Positions 46,877 through 58,827 of a stretch of 64,000 nt of DNA are shown here, piece by piece; the first letter of the stretch is position 1; every line of letters starts with the position of its first letter. The notes beneath the pieces were generated by a model. That model did no database searches. It was not told the DNA's origin and saw only the letters and a program-made list of their open reading frames with translations. Origin of the DNA: a virus (taxonomy: Duplodnaviria; Caudoviricetes); IMG/VR virus record IMGVR_UViG_3300007151_000001, positions 32,352-96,351 of that record. One strand, 5' to 3'. A program made the position numbers and the translations under genes.

Positions 46877-47279
46877 TTGACATTCCTTGACATCTCGCCC
46901 GATTTCCTTGACATCTTGGCCGAAATCCTTGACATTCCCTTGACATCTCGGCCTGTTATGTCAACCAAGATGTCAAGGATTTTTCCGAGTCGTCCCGGAC
47001 GGGCCTTGACATCTCTTGACATGACAGTTGACATAACAGGCAAGATGTCAAGAGATGTCAAGAACATGTCAAGAACTTTTCCACAATAAAAAAATCGATT
47101 TCCCTCTTATTTGCGGAAAGTTTCTTGGTTTCCTTGACATCTTGACATCTTTTTTCACTCCCTCAACCCTGAGAAAAAAAAAGAGTGCAACGTGGAGGAA
47201 AAGTAACTTTTTGGACACGTTGCAGGTGTTTTTTGGCTACTAGGTAGGGGGGAAGCCCGAATCATGTCAAGGATGTCAA
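46877..47279. repeat. Iteron cluster, putative replication origin
   Basis: 17 copies of TTGACAT/ATGTCAA in both orientations around A/T tracts; 14-bp inverted repeat CCTGTTATGTCAAC; located at the strand switch next to the primase-helicase. Confidence 0.8.
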
Positions 47280-47413: not shown

Positions 47414-47758
47414 ATGCAACTGCCGCTGTTTCCGCCTAAGCCCCCGCCGCCGACCGAGGGGTACGAGCCGCCGGACGAAGAGCCGGCGGGCGAGTACGAA
47501 GCTTGGTGCGACGAGATGGACGCTGACGGCTTGGTGATTGCCGGGGTCTTAGCTCGATTGGCGTTGGACGCGGCGGTCCAAGCCGACGGTCTGACGATGA
47601 CGCAACTGGAAACCGCGGTCGCGGAACAATTCGGGGCGCCGGAACCGGAAGCAGACGAACCCGGCCATTACTGTATGATGAGGCGCACTCATATCGGGCG
47701 TGTGATGCACGGCATGGGCTGGCAAGTGGCGGGAGAGCGGTATCGGCCGCGCTGGTGA
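47414..47758 (+). CDS. Small acidic protein starting with a clamp-binding-like motif QLPLF
   Basis: AGGAGG RBS; MQLPLF N-terminus. Confidence 0.6.
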   Translation: MQLPLFPPKPPPPTEGYEPPDEEPAGEYEAWCDEMDADGLVIAGVLARLALDAAVQADGLTMTQLETAVAEQFGAPEPEADEPGHYCMMRRTHIGRVMHGMGWQVAGERYRPRW

Positions 47759-47775
47759 GCGCAAGGAGCATGACC

Positions 47776-48141
47776 ATGATCGAACTGACGGCGCAGGCGG
47801 CGGACCGCTTGCAACGGGTACTCGCAGAGCAAGGGAAAGCGCCGGCGACGGGATTGCGGGTGTTCGTGAAGGGCGGCGGCTGCGGCGGCTTGCAGTACGG
47901 CATGACGTTGGAAGACACGGAACGCCCCGGCGATACGCAGGCGGAACAACACGGCCTGGCCGTGTACGTGGACATGATGAGCCTGCCGCATCTGCAGGGG
48001 GCCCGGATCGATTATGCGGACTCGCTGATGGGCGGCGGGTTCCACATCGAAAACCCCAACGCGGTCAGCACGTGCGGATGCGGATCGAGTTTTCGTACGG
48101 CGGGCAGCGAGACGGGGGACGAAGGGTCGTGCGGCGGCTAG
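47776..48141 (+). CDS. HesB/IscA/ErpA A-type Fe-S cluster carrier
   Basis: LRVFVKGGGCGGLQYGM and NPNAVSTCGCGSSF motifs. Confidence 0.95.
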   Translation: MIELTAQAADRLQRVLAEQGKAPATGLRVFVKGGGCGGLQYGMTLEDTERPGDTQAEQHGLAVYVDMMSLPHLQGARIDYADSLMGGGFHIENPNAVSTCGCGSSFRTAGSETGDEGSCGG

Positions 48142-48332
48142 GATTGCCTAGACGCACGAAATCCGGCCCGTAGCGAGCGTTGGCGGGAAAAGACGACCTT
48201 GTGGTAAGGTAAGCGCATTGTTCGCTCCCACACAGGAGATATGCGTATGCCACGTTTTACCGACTGGACTTGCGGGTGCTTCTGGCTCTGCCTGGGCATC
48301 TGCGTCGTCGTCGCCGCCGTGATGTATCTGTA

Positions 48333-48539
48333 ATGCGGGGTCTGTTGCTGGCGGCGGCGGTGCCCCTGGGGTCTCTCGTCTGGCTTTGGCAGAGGGTCCT
48401 GATGCACACGCTGTACGTGCAGTTGGGCGATGTGTTTCTGCGCACCCGGTATCACATGGCAGTAGGGGATGCCGAGTACGTATCGCCGCTCTGGCCGTTG
48501 CTGTACGTAGTGTTCTTGGACGTGCTGTGGCCTTGGTGA
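48333..48539 (+). CDS. Small membrane protein
   Basis: Two hydrophobic segments; coupled by TAATG/TGATG overlaps to tiny hydrophobic ORFs on both sides. Confidence 0.4.
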   Translation: MRGLLLAAAVPLGSLVWLWQRVLMHTLYVQLGDVFLRTRYHMAVGDAEYVSPLWPLLYVVFLDVLWPW

Positions 48540-48843
48540 TGTATTGGATATGGCCGCTTTGGACCTGGCTGGACAACCTCGGCGCCGGGTTCGGTTTCGA
48601 TCCGCTGTTCTTCCAGCTGATGCCGGTCTTGGTGTATATTCTCTGGGAGCGGGTCTGGTTTCACTGGCCGGAGCACCGCCTATAAATCGACCTTACCTTT
48701 TGATCAGGGCGTCCTAGGCGTCCTGGCGGCGGCCTCGGATCACCGGGGCCGCTGTCGCGTCTGTGTTATACTGTGGCATCCACAAAAAAGGCGACGAGTC
48801 CGTGAGATGACCCGCCGCCGCACAGACACGAAAGAAGGGTTCC

Positions 48844-50199
48844 GTGCCTGCCGCCTCCAGTATAGTTGAAGACACCAAGCCTCGCACTTTACGCTTGCGC
48901 TTGTTGCCGGGCACCCGTGCCAACGGCGAATACTTGGCGGGCTTGGCTGGGGCCAATCGCGCCGTCTGGAACCACTTCGTAGCCCTGAACCAAGAACGGT
49001 CTCGTCATCACCGCAACTGGCGGGATTACCGTATCGGCCCAGAACCAGCCCCGCCGCAATACCGTCGCTATTCCATGCAAAAAGAATTCACGCAGTTGCG
49101 GCGGGAATGGCCTTGGTTGCAGAAATACAGCAGCGACGAAGTCCGATATTGCCTGAAGTATCTGGAAGACACATACAAAGCCCATTTCAAGGACCCGGAA
49201 GAAAAGGGGTGGCCGAAATTTAAAGCCAAACATTTTGCGACGCCTGCCTTCACGGTTTCTCAAGGCAAGATCCAATCTGGGTGTCTGTGGATCCCCAAAT
49301 GCGGTTGGATGCGCCTGCAAGGGGAGCGGCTGTATGCCGGCTGTCAGGTCAAGACCGTGCGGGTACGGCAAGAAGGCTCGCCCCAGAGGCCCAAGTGGTA
49401 CGCCTATGTCTGCTATGACGTTCCTGTGTCCCAACTTCGTCAGGGAGCGCAGACAGGCATCGTGGGGGTCGACCGCGGCGTTACCGATGCCCTGATGGAC
49501 AGCTGCGGCGAGGCGTATCGGATGCCGGACGTATCCCGCCTGGAAGCCAAGAAGAGACGCTACGAACGCATCAAGTCACGGCGGCGCAAAGGGTCGGCGC
49601 GCCGAAGACGTATCGTAGGTCGTCTGGCCAAGATCCATCGCAAGATACGGCGGATCCGGGATACGGCCACGCACCTACACAGTCGCCAGTTGGCGGACAA
49701 GGCGCATACCATCGTCTTCGAATATCTGAAAATCAAGCAGATGACGAAATCTGCGAAAGGCACGCAAGCCGATCCCGGCCAGAACGTCAAAGCCAAGGCC
49801 GGCCTCAATCGTGAAATTCTGGCCGCCGGATGGGGCGGGACGGTTGCCAAGACGTCGTACAAGGCGGGGCGGGTCTTGCAAGTCCCGGCTGCCTATACCA
49901 GTCAAACCTGCAGCCGTTGCGGCTGCGTAGCGAAGGAGAGTCGCCAGGGGAAACGATTTCGGTGTATCGATTGTGACTTCATGGCAGACGCCGATCAGAA
50001 TGCGTCTGTCAACATCGAGCGATTGGGAAGAGAACAATTGATCGCTCAGGGCATTCCTAGGGATGCTGTTTGGCCCATGTCGCGGGGGCCGCTGCCCAGG
50101 GAGAGGCGTTCTCGTCAGAGACCTCGACGATCTGCGGAACCAGTTGTTCAACCAGACCAACCGACCAACCTTGTCCAGCGGTCGTTATGGTTTGGCTGA
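48844..50199 (+). CDS. tnpB: CRISPR-associated TnpB-like RuvC nuclease 1 (451 aa; nascent type V)
   Basis: RuvC-I VGVDRG, RuvC-II VFEYL..KQMTKSAKG, Zn-finger SQTCSRCG...CIDC, RuvC-III ADQNASVNI; the array starts after a single base following the stop. Confidence 0.9.
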   Translation: MPAASSIVEDTKPRTLRLRLLPGTRANGEYLAGLAGANRAVWNHFVALNQERSRHHRNWRDYRIGPEPAPPQYRRYSMQKEFTQLRREWPWLQKYSSDEVRYCLKYLEDTYKAHFKDPEEKGWPKFKAKHFATPAFTVSQGKIQSGCLWIPKCGWMRLQGERLYAGCQVKTVRVRQEGSPQRPKWYAYVCYDVPVSQLRQGAQTGIVGVDRGVTDALMDSCGEAYRMPDVSRLEAKKRRYERIKSRRRKGSARRRRIVGRLAKIHRKIRRIRDTATHLHSRQLADKAHTIVFEYLKIKQMTKSAKGTQADPGQNVKAKAGLNREILAAGWGGTVAKTSYKAGRVLQVPAAYTSQTCSRCGCVAKESRQGKRFRCIDCDFMADADQNASVNIERLGREQLIAQGIPRDAVWPMSRGPLPRERRSRQRPRRSAEPVVQPDQPTNLVQRSLWFG

Positions 50200-50200
50200 A
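50078..50200 (+). ncRNA. omegaRNA/tracr-like scaffold overlapping the 3' end of nuclease 1
   Basis: GGGGCCGCTGCC...GAGG-CGT-TCTC-GTCA-GAGA-CCTC...GGAAC nested hairpin resembling TnpB 3'-end RNAs; GTCGC at 50079-50083 is complementary to the repeat end GCGAC. Confidence 0.6.
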
Positions 50201-50433
50201 CCCTCAACTCGCGCACGCGCACGAGGGCGACCGTTGCGAATACGTAATCGTCGGGCGCCGTGTAATCGCCCCTCAACTCGCGCACGCGCACGAGGGCGAC
50301 CATTTCCCCCATGATGATGTCGAGCTCGTGCGGCCCCTCAACTCGCGCACGCGCACGAGGGCGACCTGCAGATCCAGCCACTTAGACATCATGCCCGCAT
50401 CCCCTCAACTCGCGCACGCGCACGAGGGCGACC
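50201..50433 (+). CRISPR. CRISPR array 1: 4 repeats, 3 spacers
   Basis: Identical 32-nt CCCTCAACTCGCGCACGCGCACGAGGGCGACC at 50201, 50270, 50335 and 50402; unique spacers of 37, 33 and 35 nt (one less each if the preceding C belongs to the repeat). Confidence 0.95.
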
Positions 50434-50453
50434 AACTCACACAGGAGGACACC

Positions 50454-50663
50454 ATGTGTAACAACCTTTCCCAGCGCTGCGCCTCGTTGCAGGCGCTCAA
50501 CCGGCAGATCAAGGCGTCATTTCGCCTGATCTATTGGCTGACCGACAGGGTCGAATGGGCCAGTGACGACGACCATCGGAAGCTGCTCGAGAAAACGATT
50601 GCGGAGCAGCACAAACAGATCGAGAGTCTGCTGGCGGTGCAACGTCTGTTGTGGGAAGAATAG
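50454..50663 (+). CDS. Small helical protein directly after array 1
   Basis: ACACAGGAGG RBS begins a few nt after the last repeat. Confidence 0.65.
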   Translation: MCNNLSQRCASLQALNRQIKASFRLIYWLTDRVEWASDDDHRKLLEKTIAEQHKQIESLLAVQRLLWEE

Positions 50664-50823
50664 ATTCCGTTCCCTACGCGCCGTGCCCGCTCTCCTAGCG
50701 GGCACGGCGCGTAGAAGACATCACACACAGGAGTAGGATGATGACGTTGGATGTTGGACCCCCGCAGAGAGTCTTGCCGGGAGGGGGCGGCCTTGCGGGT
50801 ATCGAAAAGAGGCGGAAGCAGCG

Positions 50824-51465
50824 ATGAAGGACATCAGCATGCAGAGCGACAACCTCCGAGATTATCTGTTTACCCGTGTTCCCGACAGGGAGGGAGAGTA
50901 TGCGGTGCTGGAGTTGCGCCGCCCGCCGCCCGGCGTGGTCGGCGATCCTGGCCTATATCCTTTTCATGGCCGCGAGGTCGTAGTCGTCGGGGCGGGGCAT
51001 CCCTCGTTACACAGGATTGGCGAAGTGCATCACGGGCCGATGTGGGACGAGCACGGCGCGGAGGTGGAAATGGTCCATCTGTCGGTCTCGACCACGATCA
51101 CCATAGGTCTGGAACCTGCCCCGACGCGCCGCTTGTCGTTCTATAAGCGCCGGCGCCTGCATCACCATAAGCAGCAGTATCACCTCGAGATGGCGTGGGA
51201 CCCTTTCCCGCCCGACGTGCGGCGGAAATACGTATCGCAGAAATGGGGGACGTACTGTACGGGATTTTGCGGGGACTGGGATGTGCAACAGGGTCGGATT
51301 GCCTTGTGCACATTGCAAGCAGAACCAGCCCGACGGTGGCGGGTCTACGACATCACGAAGGCCATGCCGTTGGGCTGGCCGACGGTGATCGAAGAATTCG
51401 TGGGCGGAATGAAAGACTTGCGAGTACACATGGAGCGCACGTGCGGCGCGACCGAAATCGCATAG
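50824..51465 (+). CDS. Hypothetical protein
   Basis: 213-aa ORF in the plus-strand operon; start uncertain. Confidence 0.5.
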   Translation: MKDISMQSDNLRDYLFTRVPDREGEYAVLELRRPPPGVVGDPGLYPFHGREVVVVGAGHPSLHRIGEVHHGPMWDEHGAEVEMVHLSVSTTITIGLEPAPTRRLSFYKRRRLHHHKQQYHLEMAWDPFPPDVRRKYVSQKWGTYCTGFCGDWDVQQGRIALCTLQAEPARRWRVYDITKAMPLGWPTVIEEFVGGMKDLRVHMERTCGATEIA

Positions 51466-54088: not shown

Positions 54089-54343
54089 AAAACTGCATTT
54101 CCTAGGCGCGGCATTGAAGCCCTGTGTTACGATTTCCCCGCATTATCCAAAACAGGGGAGACGGCAGAAAGTAAGGTGGGGCCGCCGGCGCTCTCGGACC
54201 GAATTTCCGCCGGCGGCTCTTTTGTGTTAAAGACAGGCCAGGGCCCGCGGCATTGCGTTGCGTCGAATGCCGGGCCCTTCCCTTGTCTTCAGCACTGTGA
54301 TACAATCCATACAGGAGAGTAGCAGAACACACAGGAGACGGCA

Positions 54344-56044
54344 ATGGCGGTGGGAGCACTAGCGACAGACCTAGGACATCTTCCCCTTTTCGACTATGCC
54401 CGTAGGCAAGCGGCGGGGCAGTCCAGTATGCCGCGGGTATCGCCTGTCTACAGGCCGGTGCGCTACAGGATTTACCCGATGACTTCCGATAATGCCCGGT
54501 ACTGGGAAGAAATCGACGCGGCCCGCTGCGCCGTGCGCAACCGGTGTCGGGCTTTGCGCAAGGCTAGAGCGCGCCTGTATGCGGCTTGTAGCCAACCCGC
54601 GGACGAACAGACCGAATTGCTGCAAGACGCGGAGTTTACCCGCAAGCTGGCCTTCCTGCGTCAGCACTTGGAATTGCTTTGCGCTAGCGCGTCGGGCCGA
54701 AAATACGCAGAACAGCTGCTCGCAGTCCTGAACTGGTTTGAGGGGCACCGTACCGCTCCGGTCCCGCGCATGCCAAGCAACAAGAGACTGGACTCGTGGG
54801 TAGCGTTGTGTGCAGACTTCACAGTGTTTTACGACTGCATAATGCCGTGGCTGAAGCAGTACCCTTATGGTGCGGTGCGGTCGGTGCTGAAAGACATGGC
54901 TACCACCTACAAGAACGCATACGACGACTCCCAGCCCAATGCGCGGTTGCCGAAGTATCACGATCCCGCTGAAGATGGGAAACGGCACAAGGGCTTTACT
55001 TTGCTTGACGGTGCGAAGGTCGAAGACGGGTGGGTGTATGTCCCGGGAACCCGAGACCAGAAAGGGACCTGGCATCTATTTCGCCGGCGCGGGGACAACA
55101 AATTCGAATCGTATCCTATCGGTCCTGTGCGGGTCTGGCAGGAACGGCAACGTGGGCGCAGGCGTGCGCGGTGGTTCATTACGCTGTGGTATAAAGTGCC
55201 GTGCAACGTGCTGTACGCGGATGTCGCAGATACCGGGCTAAGGGGGTTGGATCGAAATTCCGCGGAGGGAGAGACTGCGGCTCCTTATGTAGACAGTACG
55301 GGACATGTCTGGAGTGTGCCGAATACCGAGCGCTTGGAGGAACGAAAGAAGCGCCTGCAACGCAAAGCGGCTAAACAAGAGGGCAAGAACCGCAAGACCA
55401 AGGCCGCGGGGTCACGGAATTGGCATAAGACGCAGGCAAAGATACGTTGCATCGACGCCAAGATTGCCGCGGTTTGGCATCACGCCCTGCAAGAAATGAC
55501 TACGGAGATGAAACGCAACGCTCGGTATTGGGGGATCGAAAATCTGAACTTGCTCGGGATGACTACTTCCGGGAAGGGCAGCGTGGAAGAGCCAGGGAAG
55601 AACGTCAAAGCGATTGCCGCCAAGAACCGGGGGATGAGAGCCGCCCGGTTGGGGAAAGCGCAAGACATGCTGGAATACAAGTTGCCTGCGGGGCACTTGA
55701 TCGGCGTGCATGCCGCCTATACCAGTCAGCAATGTAGCGATTGCGGGTATACGGACAAAAAGAACCGGCTGTCGCGGGCCGTCTTCCGCTGTGGAAGTTG
55801 CGGATTGGAACTGCATGCGGATTGGAATGCTGCGCGGAATATTGCGCAGCGCGCCCTGGAGCAGTTGAAGGCGGGGGACGTATCTGCCGATGATCCGCGA
55901 CATAAGGAAATAGCCAAATTGGCGGTGGCTTTACTGGAGCCGTCGATGTTGGAGGCGCGTGTCACGGCGTCTTTAGGTGGGGATGGTGTCGTGCAATCCA
56001 ACTCCGGTTGGGCAGACACCGGTGAAGCACTGAACCAAGTTTGA
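54344..56044 (+). CDS. CRISPR-associated TnpB/Cas12f-like RuvC nuclease 2 (566 aa) with expanded N-terminal REC region
   Basis: RuvC-I RGLDRN, RuvC-II WGIENL...GMT.SGKGS, Zn-finger SQQCSDCG...CGSCG, RuvC-III ADWNAARNI; phage-type ACACAGGAG RBS and TGTGATACAAT promoter. Confidence 0.9.
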   Translation: MAVGALATDLGHLPLFDYARRQAAGQSSMPRVSPVYRPVRYRIYPMTSDNARYWEEIDAARCAVRNRCRALRKARARLYAACSQPADEQTELLQDAEFTRKLAFLRQHLELLCASASGRKYAEQLLAVLNWFEGHRTAPVPRMPSNKRLDSWVALCADFTVFYDCIMPWLKQYPYGAVRSVLKDMATTYKNAYDDSQPNARLPKYHDPAEDGKRHKGFTLLDGAKVEDGWVYVPGTRDQKGTWHLFRRRGDNKFESYPIGPVRVWQERQRGRRRARWFITLWYKVPCNVLYADVADTGLRGLDRNSAEGETAAPYVDSTGHVWSVPNTERLEERKKRLQRKAAKQEGKNRKTKAAGSRNWHKTQAKIRCIDAKIAAVWHHALQEMTTEMKRNARYWGIENLNLLGMTTSGKGSVEEPGKNVKAIAAKNRGMRAARLGKAQDMLEYKLPAGHLIGVHAAYTSQQCSDCGYTDKKNRLSRAVFRCGSCGLELHADWNAARNIAQRALEQLKAGDVSADDPRHKEIAKLAVALLEPSMLEARVTASLGGDGVVQSNSGWADTGEALNQV

Positions 56045-56089: not shown

Positions 56090-56630
56090 GTCACAATCAT
56101 AATTTCGATTGGGAAGTGATTGTGACCCCCAGCGCCTTCGCATTGTCTACGATGGTATCGTCACAATCATAATTTCGATTGGGAAGTGATTGTGACCAAT
56201 GCGGAAGTTGAAGACATGCCCCGTCTCGAAGTCACAATCATAATTTCGATTGGGAAGTGATTGTGACCCCCCACAGGTTGAGGAATGCGCGGGCGAGCCG
56301 TTGTCACAATCATAATTTCGATTGGGAAGTGATTGTGACCCCAGGGGTTGCACCAGATGCCCGGCCCCCGCGAGTCACAATCATAATTTCGATTGGGAAG
56401 TGATTGTGACCTGTAGTGATCGTCGTAGGTACTAGGACACACGGGGTGTCACAATCATAATTTCGATTGGGAAGTGATTGTGACCCTTCGTCTTCCACAG
56501 CGCCGTCGCGGCAGGCGTCATGTCACAATCATAATTTCGATTGGGAAGTGATTGTGACCATGCCGTGAGTAGCAGACGCTCATGTGGGTATCGTCACAAT
56601 CATAATTTCGATTGGGAAGTGATTGTGACC
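56090..56630 (+). CRISPR. CRISPR array 2: 8 repeats, 7 spacers
   Basis: Identical 38-nt GTCACAATCATAATTTCGATTGGGAAGTGATTGTGACC at 56090, 56160, 56231, 56303, 56374, 56448, 56522 and 56593; spacers of 32, 33, 34, 33, 36, 36 and 33 nt. Confidence 0.98.
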
Positions 56631-57360: not shown

Positions 57361-58827
57361 ATGCGGGGGGAACACCGCGTTCGGCTGATCCGTCTGTCGT
57401 TTGCCGACGGTGCACGCTGGTACGGGCGGGTCTATCGCGCCTATCGACTGCGCAGTTGCCTGAACCGGATCCAAGAGCAAGCCCCGGCGATAGCCGAGCG
57501 CATGGCGGCAGGCGCGATCGTCTGTCTGGAGCAGCTGGCCTGTACGACGGCGGCCCCGGCGACGGCTCTGTACTACCGCTATCTGTACTACGACCGGCGG
57601 CCCGGGCTACTCAACATCCAGCGCAATTTCGCGGAGCGGGCTGACGCCCCAGAGGTCTACTGTTCGCAGTGTGCCGCGTGGAAGCCGCGCTCTGCGTTTC
57701 GGAAGACGAAACGCAAGCGAAACGGGTTGAGCAGTCTATGTAGGGACTGTCATCAGCGCAAGTACTATCATGCGCAACCGTTGCGGCGCCGTCCCTGCTG
57801 GCGGTGCGGCAAAGAGTTCCCGGCCAAGGCAAAGAGTCCCCGGAAGTACTGCAGTGCCGAATGCCGTCGTCTGGGAGGCGCTCTGACCCGCACTGTGCAG
57901 TGTGGGGAATGCGGGGCGTCTTTCGAGACGGCGCTGCCTCGGAAATACTGTAGTCATGCCTGTGCGACGGTCGTCCAACGTCGCGCCGAACGCACATCCA
58001 AGGCGAAGAAGCGCGGGCCTCGCCCGCCGGTACGACAGTGTTTGCAGTGTGGTTCCGAGTTTGCGCCCAAGTCCAGGCGTAACGTGTACTGTTCGCAGGA
58101 CTGCTATCAGATTGTCAATCGGCAACGCTCGGCAGAGCGCAACCGGCGCAGATATGCCGCCCGGCCAGAGCGGGCTTGCCCGACATGCGGAACCGAGTTT
58201 GCGCCCTTCGGGAGGCGAGCGTACTGTTCGGAGGAATGTCGGCGGTTGGCGTTGCCGAAGGCCCCCTGCGCATTGGGTCGGGAAAAGCCGTGCTTACGAT
58301 GCGGAACGAGTTTTCTTGCCAGGACCAACCAGCGTTGGTGTTCGTCAGGTTGTCGGGAACAAGCGTTGGCGGAACGGAAGCCGCCGGCGCCTACCTACAC
58401 GTGTGCGGAATGCCAGGCGGAGTTCAAGGCCCGGCGCAAGCGGGAATGCTGTTCGCCCGCGTGCACCAAGCGTCACGTGGCCCGGCGGCGGGCCTTGGAG
58501 TACCAACGGCGGCGGGAACAATTCGCGGGGCGTCTGTGGTTGCGCCAACTAGGGCGCTGCGGTCTCGTAGGCTCCGTGAAGGGTTGTGGTTGCCAGTTGG
58601 ACAAGTACGATTTCCACATCGATCACGTCGTGCCGCGGAGTCGGGGAGGGCTGGACACGCCCGACAATCTGCAACTGCTGTGCCCCGACTGCAACCGGAA
58701 TGCGTCTTGGCTGATGGAGTCGGAACTGGCGGAGCGAGGATGGCAATACGGCTTAGCCAATCCCCCCGCACGGGGCAAGGCGGGGTTGTATACTCAGAGG
58801 GCCACGGAACGGACACAACGGGCGTGA
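57361..58827 (+). CDS. HNH endonuclease with multiple Zn-finger repeats
   Basis: Six CxxC.xxF...CSxxC units and C-terminal HIDHVVPRSRGG....NLQLLCPDCN. Confidence 0.8.
   Translation: MRGEHRVRLIRLSFADGARWYGRVYRAYRLRSCLNRIQEQAPAIAERMAAGAIVCLEQLACTTAAPATALYYRYLYYDRRPGLLNIQRNFAERADAPEVYCSQCAAWKPRSAFRKTKRKRNGLSSLCRDCHQRKYYHAQPLRRRPCWRCGKEFPAKAKSPRKYCSAECRRLGGALTRTVQCGECGASFETALPRKYCSHACATVVQRRAERTSKAKKRGPRPPVRQCLQCGSEFAPKSRRNVYCSQDCYQIVNRQRSAERNRRRYAARPERACPTCGTEFAPFGRRAYCSEECRRLALPKAPCALGREKPCLRCGTSFLARTNQRWCSSGCREQALAERKPPAPTYTCAECQAEFKARRKRECCSPACTKRHVARRRALEYQRRREQFAGRLWLRQLGRCGLVGSVKGCGCQLDKYDFHIDHVVPRSRGGLDTPDNLQLLCPDCNRNASWLMESELAERGWQYGLANPPARGKAGLYTQRATERTQRA

Follow-up and report, generated by a model that had tools for sequence, protein, structure and literature searches.

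A nuclease gene of the TnpB type, followed at its stop codon by a mini CRISPR array, was analyzed in a 64-kb stretch of phage DNA (the window, bases 32352-96351 of the 96,351-bp IMG/VR virus record IMGVR_UViG_3300007151_000001; all positions below are those of the window). The best explanation for this locus (48844-50433, plus strand) is that of a phage-borne, immobilised TnpB working as a minimal type V-like CRISPR effector: the nuclease is intact, the 3' end of its gene retains an omega-RNA-like guide scaffold, both transposon ends are lost, and the place of the guide is occupied by a four-repeat array in which every repeat ends in bases complementary to a loop of the scaffold. We consider that it is probably a plus-strand system resembling Cas12n and TranC, used by the phage in competition with other phages.

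The nuclease gene and its mini array

The open reading frame (ORF) of the nuclease spans 48844-50199 on the plus strand, is intact, and runs from a GTG start through 451 amino acids (aa) to a TGA stop at 50197-50199. Its product matches the Pfam families OrfB_IS605 (E-value 2.3e-09) and Cas12f1-like_TNB (2.4e-14), as well as phrog_506, annotated as 'transposase', at 4.9e-69. Alignment to 29 relatives placed D210, E293 and D384 of RuvC, like the zinc-finger cysteines C356, C359, C374 and C377 (CxxC...CxxC), in invariant or nearly invariant columns; the protein has what characterizes a TnpB, namely the D-E-D of RuvC-I, II and III, a zinc finger and a size of about 400 aa, and a preliminary description of this DNA, made from the sequence alone, had rightly listed a 451-aa TnpB with all three catalytic residues. 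An AlphaFold model reached a mean pLDDT score of 74.7 with a confident core, the parts of low confidence being the first seven residues, an internal loop (residues 298-328) and the tail (residues 411-451, nt 50074-50196), which has pLDDT values below 50 and is predicted to be disordered.

A repeat scan placed the mini array, four repeats and three spacers, at 50200-50433 on the plus strand. The exact direct repeats (50200-50232, 50269-50301, 50334-50366 and 50401-50433) are identical over 32 nt, their first base being A in copy 1 and C in copies 2 to 4, and the spacers (50233-50268, 50302-50333 and 50367-50400) are 36, 32 and 34 nt long and occur only once in the 96-kb genome. This is the pattern of a CRISPR array, with at least three near-identical repeats (of some 23-55 nt) and unique spacers of similar length. 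The array lies within a block of plus-strand genes, bounded by the stop codon on one side and the ribosome-binding site (RBS) of the next ORF on the other, thus leaving no room for a leader on either side. As previously described, the first repeat begins one base after the TGA (the stop ends at 50199 and the invariant 32-nt part starts at 50201), and the RBS (AGGAGG, 50441-50446) comes within a few nt of the last repeat, which ends at 50433, the downstream ATG following twenty bases later. Neither a leader nor adaptation genes accompany the array, and Cas1 gave zero matches in the 96-kb phage genome; according to the available text of PMC10691335, adaptation genes (cas1/cas2) are likewise missing from many loci of type V-U, Cas12f and TranC.

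The record belongs to the IMG/VR class with direct terminal repeats and has a CheckV completeness estimate of 100%. Exactly two TnpB-family genes and two CRISPR-like arrays are present in the whole 96-kb genome, plus one tandem repeat of 21 nt, in 3 copies, near the primase gene. Each array stands directly 3' of one of the two nuclease genes and on the same strand, therefore the presence of an array beside the nuclease is not a product of chance.

Guide scaffold, lost transposon ends and loop-repeat match

In a collection of 5.8 billion proteins, the 451-aa protein was alone in its cluster at 90% identity, the best other match being 53% identical. A scan of one genome per species recovered 549 relatives, and the best 80 of these were mostly multicopy genes from metagenome-assembled genomes of Caldilineaceae, with 36-52% identity. 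The cellular TnpB elements (L005-L084, for example L007:2334-3801 and L010:2332-3801) are 1.3-1.7 kb long and begin with roughly 16-29 nt that recur in reverse complement at their other end; 45 of 66 loci carry upstream an inverted copy of the final 16 nt, and 23 of those 45 had identical 8-nt flanks, which resemble the target-site duplications made by a DDE-type transposon. Inside these elements no transposase gene was found. The parent family is one of small elements with inverted ends and 8-bp flank duplications, unlike the classic IS200/IS605-type ends.

The DNA following the RuvC-III motif was aligned across the relatives, and a covariance model, R1, was built from the 3' ends of 30 cellular ones. 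In the relatives, an RNA-like conserved region runs to ...GTATATAAGTCCC, where similarity ends; their right end consists of a terminal stem and then ...TATAAGTCCC. RNAalifold folded this region into five stems, with compensatory changes at 10 of 23 pairs. Across the 64 kb of the window R1 matched significantly only once, at 50037-50159 on the plus strand (56.7 bits, E 5.2e-13), so that an omega-RNA-like guide scaffold with stems A-D has been retained. These stems align with high posterior probability, well up to about 50142, and their paired positions are kept by changes on both sides, whereas the last stem and the terminal motif of the model align unconvincingly, its 3' end being forced onto 50143-50159. 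The stretch of low pLDDT at residues 411-451 coincides with the R1 match, hence the disordered tail is the part of the protein that encodes the scaffold. Stem A, seen in the fold of the relatives and in the R1 alignment, lies at 50073-50089 (plus strand) and is formed by GCCC, a 9-nt loop and GGGC. Rfam returned solely hairpin-type chance matches below the gathering scores.

Where the relatives have their last stem, a longer terminal hairpin, stem E' (50146-50201, plus strand), stands in the window, in which 50146-50166 pairs with 50180-50201 across the TGA stop, ending in the first bases of repeat 1. It appears in both the minimum-energy and the centroid fold, and agrees with the earlier observation that the C-terminal tail overlaps a nested hairpin like those of TnpB 3'-end RNAs. 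The right-end module itself, that is the last stem plus TATAAGTCCC, is absent from the locus, and no left end or inverted copy was detected upstream of the nuclease, the best local score there lying within the shuffled range. Array 1 occupies the position of the guide in a locus without transposon ends, and no sign of mobility was found either, with the 90%-identity cluster having one member on one contig. That the array has replaced the transposon right end, as first proposed, is in agreement with this evidence.

The stem-A loop of the relatives contains five bases (columns 8-12, commonly GGGAC) complementary to the five with which their right end closes (GUCCC), and variants co-vary (GGGAA/UUCCC, GGGGA/UCCCC, GGGGC/GCCCC). 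Over 66 relative loci, 92.4% of the cells were paired, and 12 cells were changed on both sides compared with a shuffled mean of 4.3, a value not reached in any of 500 shuffles. The available portion of PMC10097598 describes, in the structure of ISDra2 TnpB with its omega-RNA, a pairing of bases -6 to -2 with the 5' region, base -1 being left unpaired, and its authors state that this pseudoknot is conserved in Cas12 guide RNAs; as far as that portion allows the comparison, the pairing in the relatives matches it in position and size.

The corresponding loop positions of the window (50079-50083) have the sequence GUCGC, which would be the 5' strand of the pseudoknot. Its complement GCGAC is found at -6 to -2 of each repeat of array 1 on the plus strand (50227-50231, 50296-50300, 50361-50365 and 50428-50432), every repeat ending with GCGAC and a single C, at -1, before the spacer. 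The 3' ends of the repeats supply the strand which in the relatives is given by the right end, and this supports the previous suggestion that scaffold and first repeat-spacer form one unit. Any such loop match arose in 274 of 5000 trials with shuffled regions (184 of 5000 for the second system, described below), and the minus-strand control gave no loop match of the repeat. A resemblance of the repeat ends to the arms of hairpin E' was also considered and rejected, the duplex energies being no better than those of shuffles in either orientation.

The second nuclease (54344-56044, plus strand, 566 aa) is 31% identical to the 451-aa protein over 392 aa (E 8e-39). Array 2 starts 45 nt after its gene (56090-56630, plus strand, from the repeat scan) and is composed of eight copies of a 38-nt hairpin repeat, with a plus-strand fold of -16.3 kcal/mol (z -4.5), and seven spacers of 32-36 nt. 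For the 566-aa protein and array 2 no close homologue was found, the best other protein being 35% identical. A stem-loop in the tail of its ORF (55954-55971, plus strand), present in the minimum-energy fold and not in the centroid, has the loop GUCAC (55961-55965), complementary to bases -6 to -2 of the array-2 repeat, which ends GUGAC plus C; the offsets are the same as in system 1. The two repeats were said to differ except for a GACC end, which their comparison confirmed, and the end is common to both because each finishes in a pseudoknot strand followed by C. The difference in loop and repeat between the two systems is a compensatory change.

A tree of 52 rows was constructed from a set of 221 proteins by taking every second of P0002-P0040, every fifth of P0042-P0117 and every third of P0122-P0164, with a length of 330-620 aa, together with the two window proteins, a selection without Cas12n or TranC sequences. 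Here the two phage nucleases were sisters (Shimodaira-Hasegawa-like approximate likelihood ratio test, SH-aLRT, 90) inside a fully supported clade with Caldilineaceae TnpBs, with branch lengths of 0.67 for the 451-aa and 2.22 for the 566-aa protein; because of the long branch of the latter, their sister position is uncertain. The array-1 system had been taken for an earlier stage of CRISPR association than that of array 2. This is reasonable given its shorter branch, TnpB-like size, R1-detectable scaffold and shorter, gene-abutting array, but stays a matter of interpretation.

Weighing of explanations and relation to known systems

We propose that a single plus-strand transcript, starting from a conserved promoter, would carry the nuclease mRNA, the scaffold (stems A-D and hairpin E') and the repeat-spacer units. 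A promoter-like extended -10 (TGTGTTATACT, 48762-48772, plus strand) was read from the sequence and from an upstream alignment with 19 relatives, which have TGTGCTATAAT at the aligned place; the window keeps the promoter-like TGTG.TATA.T box and the 5'-untranslated region (5'-UTR) of the TnpB family upstream of the gene. Each repeat would then contribute a small hairpin, a strand of 5 nt (GCGAC) and, immediately 5' of the spacer, one unpaired C. Pairing of GCGAC with the stem-A loop would build the pseudoknot that TnpB and Cas12 proteins grip, and the spacer would thereby be placed as guide, spacer 1 acting in cis and spacers 2 and 3 in trans after cutting of the transcript. The DNA cleaved under these three guides would probably be that of competing phages or of other mobile elements.

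Several results weigh against this reading. Two variable pairs of the pseudoknot were unpaired in 13 and 12 of the 66 cells, so to speak a moderate covariation, and the relatedness of the loci inflates its counts. The generic chance of a loop match is about 4-5% per system, and the test was conceived only after the pattern of the family had been seen. R1 finds no scaffold in system 2 (all E above 1). No long anti-repeat was found on either strand around both arrays, by RNAduplex and by an ungapped complementarity scan against shuffled repeats, and judging from the sequence the use of spacers 2 and 3 in trans would depend on 5 bp and on contacts with the protein; moreover, the pseudoknot strand and the repeat's own hairpin have one G in common. 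The repeat hairpin is not clearly better than those of shuffles (z -1.3 to -1.7 on the plus strand, about -0.5 on the minus strand). Finally, no protospacer was found in the phage itself at up to 8 mismatches, in 151 Caldilineaceae-family genomes (best E 5.7e-4 per genome) or in 50,697 phage and 72,556 plasmid records, a negative that does not extend to spacer-by-spacer scans of the viral and metagenome collections.

One alternative, which we hold to be unlikely, would be that the ancestral omega-RNA function alone survives, with one fixed guide (spacer 1 or the repeat itself) and repeats 2-4 as inert tandem duplications of the 3' module. It would fit with the missing anti-repeat, which leaves nothing to tether free CRISPR RNAs (crRNAs), with the tiny array in a phage without Cas1, and with strict positional homology, by which the ancestral guide start falls a few bases after hairpin E', inside repeat 1. 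However, the four repeats do not differ over 32 nt, and between them stand unrelated spacers of CRISPR-like length, a pattern that argues for selection on the repeats; the sister system, too, keeps eight identical repeats with the same loop-repeat match. For the units of a working array, a pairing as short as 5 bp would have to be enough.

It also appears improbable that the array belongs to another effector, either as a minus-strand solitary mini-array for a class 1 complex of the host or for use by the 566-aa nuclease, its adjacency reflecting a clustering of accessory genes. The minus-strand repeat does fold to a stem-loop with a free 3' segment, and the variant base sits in the gene-proximal repeat, when in ordinary arrays the variant repeat is usually at the leader-distal end. 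Cross-use is conceivable as well, as the system-1 loop could pair with the array-2 repeat end through one G-U; nevertheless, in both systems the repeat end matches the loop of the scaffold beside it, and the system-2 loop mismatches the array-1 repeat (A opposite C). Both arrays run in the direction of the genes around them, a minus-strand leader would have no space, and a strict -35/-10 scan gave no promoter-like site on either strand of 48300-51000. Nor was a host array with this repeat detected: the 29-nt repeat core had 0 matches in one genome of each of 185,579 species, the repeat had 0 matches in five Caldilineaceae genomes at up to 3 mismatches and 0 exact matches in 2.9 million viral contigs, BLAST of the array against the 151 Caldilineaceae-family genomes gave chance-level matches only, and a 24-nt core had one single-copy match, from compost and without an array, in metagenome contigs. 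In these searches the host is a guess drawn solely from the origin of the TnpB relatives (Caldilineaceae), so the absence of a host repeat is not proven by them.

The idea that the repeats are reiterated hairpins acting as regulators of transcription or translation, or as protein-binding sites, is very improbable, for even though every repeat is able to fold into a hairpin, two genes of one operon flank the block and no spacer targets were found, the regular spacing of 65-69 nt with unique spacers of 32-36 nt is a CRISPR pattern, the region is non-coding in any single frame because its spacings are not all multiples of three, no Rfam family matched it, and the scaffold-loop complementarity in two systems would be left unexplained.

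Returning to the array as guide source of the adjacent nuclease, the kind of system is known, since Cas12n and TranC are described. RdCas12n (9J09) is the best solved-structure match of both nucleases, with E 6.3e-24 for the 451-aa protein over residues 183-396 only; the 451-aa protein and RdCas12n have in common the insertion motif MT.SAKGT...PG.NV..K.GLNR, which the aligned ISDra2 TnpB does not have at that place. PADLOC gave a Cas12u4 profile match at 3e-53 (residues 7-402), with the Cas12f profile slightly higher (1.9e-55). According to the accessible parts of PMC12216341 and bioRxiv 10.64898/2026.03.27.714800, the region of the trans-activating CRISPR RNA (tracrRNA) of Cas12n overlaps the disordered C-terminal tail of its own ORF, so that Cas12n (type V-U4 / V-N) is like the present locus in its small, monomer-type TnpB-like effector, its guide region in a disordered ORF tail and its short array downstream. 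In contrast, the Cas12n guide has a final anti-repeat:repeat stem, in what the latter source makes available, while here only the 5-nt loop match is seen and scaffold and repeat 1 form one unbroken stretch. An A-rich 5' protospacer-adjacent motif is a further mark of Cas12n. The closest relatives of the phage protein differ too, being multicopy Caldilineaceae elements with inverted ends (45-53% identity), which suggests an independent capture.

TranC (transposon-CRISPR intermediates; Jin et al., Cell 2025, cited in PMC13565253) is likewise a TnpB-like nuclease genomically linked to a CRISPR array, the accessible part of bioRxiv 10.64898/2026.03.27.714800 describing TnpB-sized nucleases by short arrays, several clades with repeats of 32-38 bp in numbers of 3-20, and CauTranC9 from a phage genome, read as superinfection exclusion. 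However, TranC is presented in those sections as a right-end RNA split into tracrRNA and crRNA, whereas in this phage scaffold and repeat 1 are not separated and an anti-repeat duplex was not seen; the 451-aa protein matches the solved LaTranC only weakly (9jfq, E 1.5e-06). Characteristic of TranC is also that it works with CRISPR RNA as well as with the RNA of the transposon right end. ISDra2 TnpB shows full-length similarity (8H1J and 8BF8, E about 6e-22, residues 18-405), a scaffold in the 3' end of the ORF and, going by the available portion of PMC10097598, the pseudoknot at -6 to -2 with -1 unpaired. Unlike TnpB transposons, the gene is a single copy in a phage, without ends, and has an array instead of flanking DNA at the guide position. 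The locus also recalls solitary virus-borne mini-arrays in being very short, without cas adaptation genes and in a virus genome. Such arrays are probably used in inter-virus conflict and copy the repeat of the host, whereas here no host repeat was found and an own effector with a matching scaffold adjoins the array.

What is already known, then, within the accessible parts of those sources, is a guide scaffold in a disordered tail with a downstream array (Cas12n) and TnpB-like nucleases with arrays (TranC, one of them in a phage). What differs here is a scaffold continuous with repeat 1, the lack of an anti-repeat duplex, co-varying tether bases in two systems, and a parent family with inverted ends. 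On the origin of such arrays, Altae-Tran et al. (PMC10691335), in the text available, note that the place of arrays, downstream of cas12, is like that of omega-RNAs, downstream of tnpB, and leave open whether an omega-RNA segment was duplicated or the gene was inserted by an existing array. As a tentative possibility, the array could have been born by serial duplication of the last omega-RNA module (hairpin, pseudoknot strand and one base) of an inverted-end TnpB family, with one ORF-embedded scaffold serving all units through the 5-bp pseudoknot alone, without a repeat:anti-repeat duplex, and with a duplication inside the phage into two systems whose loop and repeat co-evolved. If true, this would be a third mode of assembly for type V guides, beside tracrRNA duplexes and self-contained crRNAs. 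In this phage, two related nucleases have moved away from one transposon family to different degrees, and the one that has changed less still has an R1-detectable scaffold running straight into repeat 1, a natural snapshot of small CRISPR systems arising from transposon genes. The loop-repeat match predicts which five bases tether the guide to the scaffold, and the 451-aa protein, if active, would be a nuclease of very small size that an array can program. The locus also adds to the evidence for the use by phages of minimal systems against competitors.

The combination of TnpB and mini-array is not unique to this phage. A comparison of close homologues with and without arrays had been suggested in the preliminary description; no close homologue was found in the collections searched, and a CRISPR-like array stood within 2.5 kb downstream in none of the best 80 of the 549 cellular relatives, and downstream in two of the distant viral loci inspected. 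One flagged cellular locus (L022) was rejected as an array, having coding-type repeats of 69/72 nt located upstream. IMG/VR relatives were at most 36% identical over long matches, and 4 of 80 loci were flagged for repeats; of the three inspected (all but L099), short arrays follow the gene downstream in L160 and L119, while that of L131 lies upstream. These three carry 3-5 CRISPR-like repeats beside a TnpB gene with about 30% identity to the query (L160:3698-3897, L119:4146-4404 and L131:1949-2101), L160 sitting on a contig of 297,749 bp. They belong to unrelated lineages, and the loop-match test on L160 gave no match.

Surroundings of the locus

Within the 5'-UTR of the nuclease gene, the minus strand of 48790-48819 has a terminator-like hairpin followed by TTTTTT, which could block antisense transcription; at the aligned place the relatives appear to carry a hairpin preceded by an A-rich run. 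Downstream of the array, the RBS already mentioned (feature 50441-50663, plus strand) serves a 69-aa ORF (50454-50663, ATG at 50454), which had no Pfam family above the cut-off, no PHROG match and no PADLOC match, and is probably in the same transcription unit as the nuclease. A perfect 18-bp inverted repeat with a 5-nt loop, found in the repeat scan of the window at 50674-50714, may mark the end of this unit; it has no T-run after it on either strand and is not among the predicted terminator-like sites. Several genes of the plus-strand block have a ACACACAGGAG-type ribosome-binding context (50433-50447, 50719-50733 and 54322-54340), and this common context supports the calls of the small downstream ORFs.

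No relatives of the phage that could be used for synteny were found in viral contigs, by protein-pattern scans with the nuclease, the primase and a 213-aa protein encoded downstream. Where the primase block of the minus strand gives way to the plus-strand block, the gap contains a 21-nt tandem repeat of 2.6 copies (46882-46935) and an 11-nt tandem repeat of 3 copies (47045-47076), which are iteron-like and may belong to an origin of replication or to a regulatory region. The phage also encodes, at 47755-48141 and two genes upstream of the nuclease, a member of the Pfam family Fe-S_biosyn (iron-sulphur cluster biosynthesis, 1.3e-19). Right after array 2, a 488-aa ORF (57361-58827) had weak PADLOC matches to a type IV restriction enzyme profile, and its residues 391-449 matched a stretch of a Cas9 profile (PADLOC, E about 1e-4), which may reflect a shared nuclease motif, possibly, as a guess, of the HNH type.

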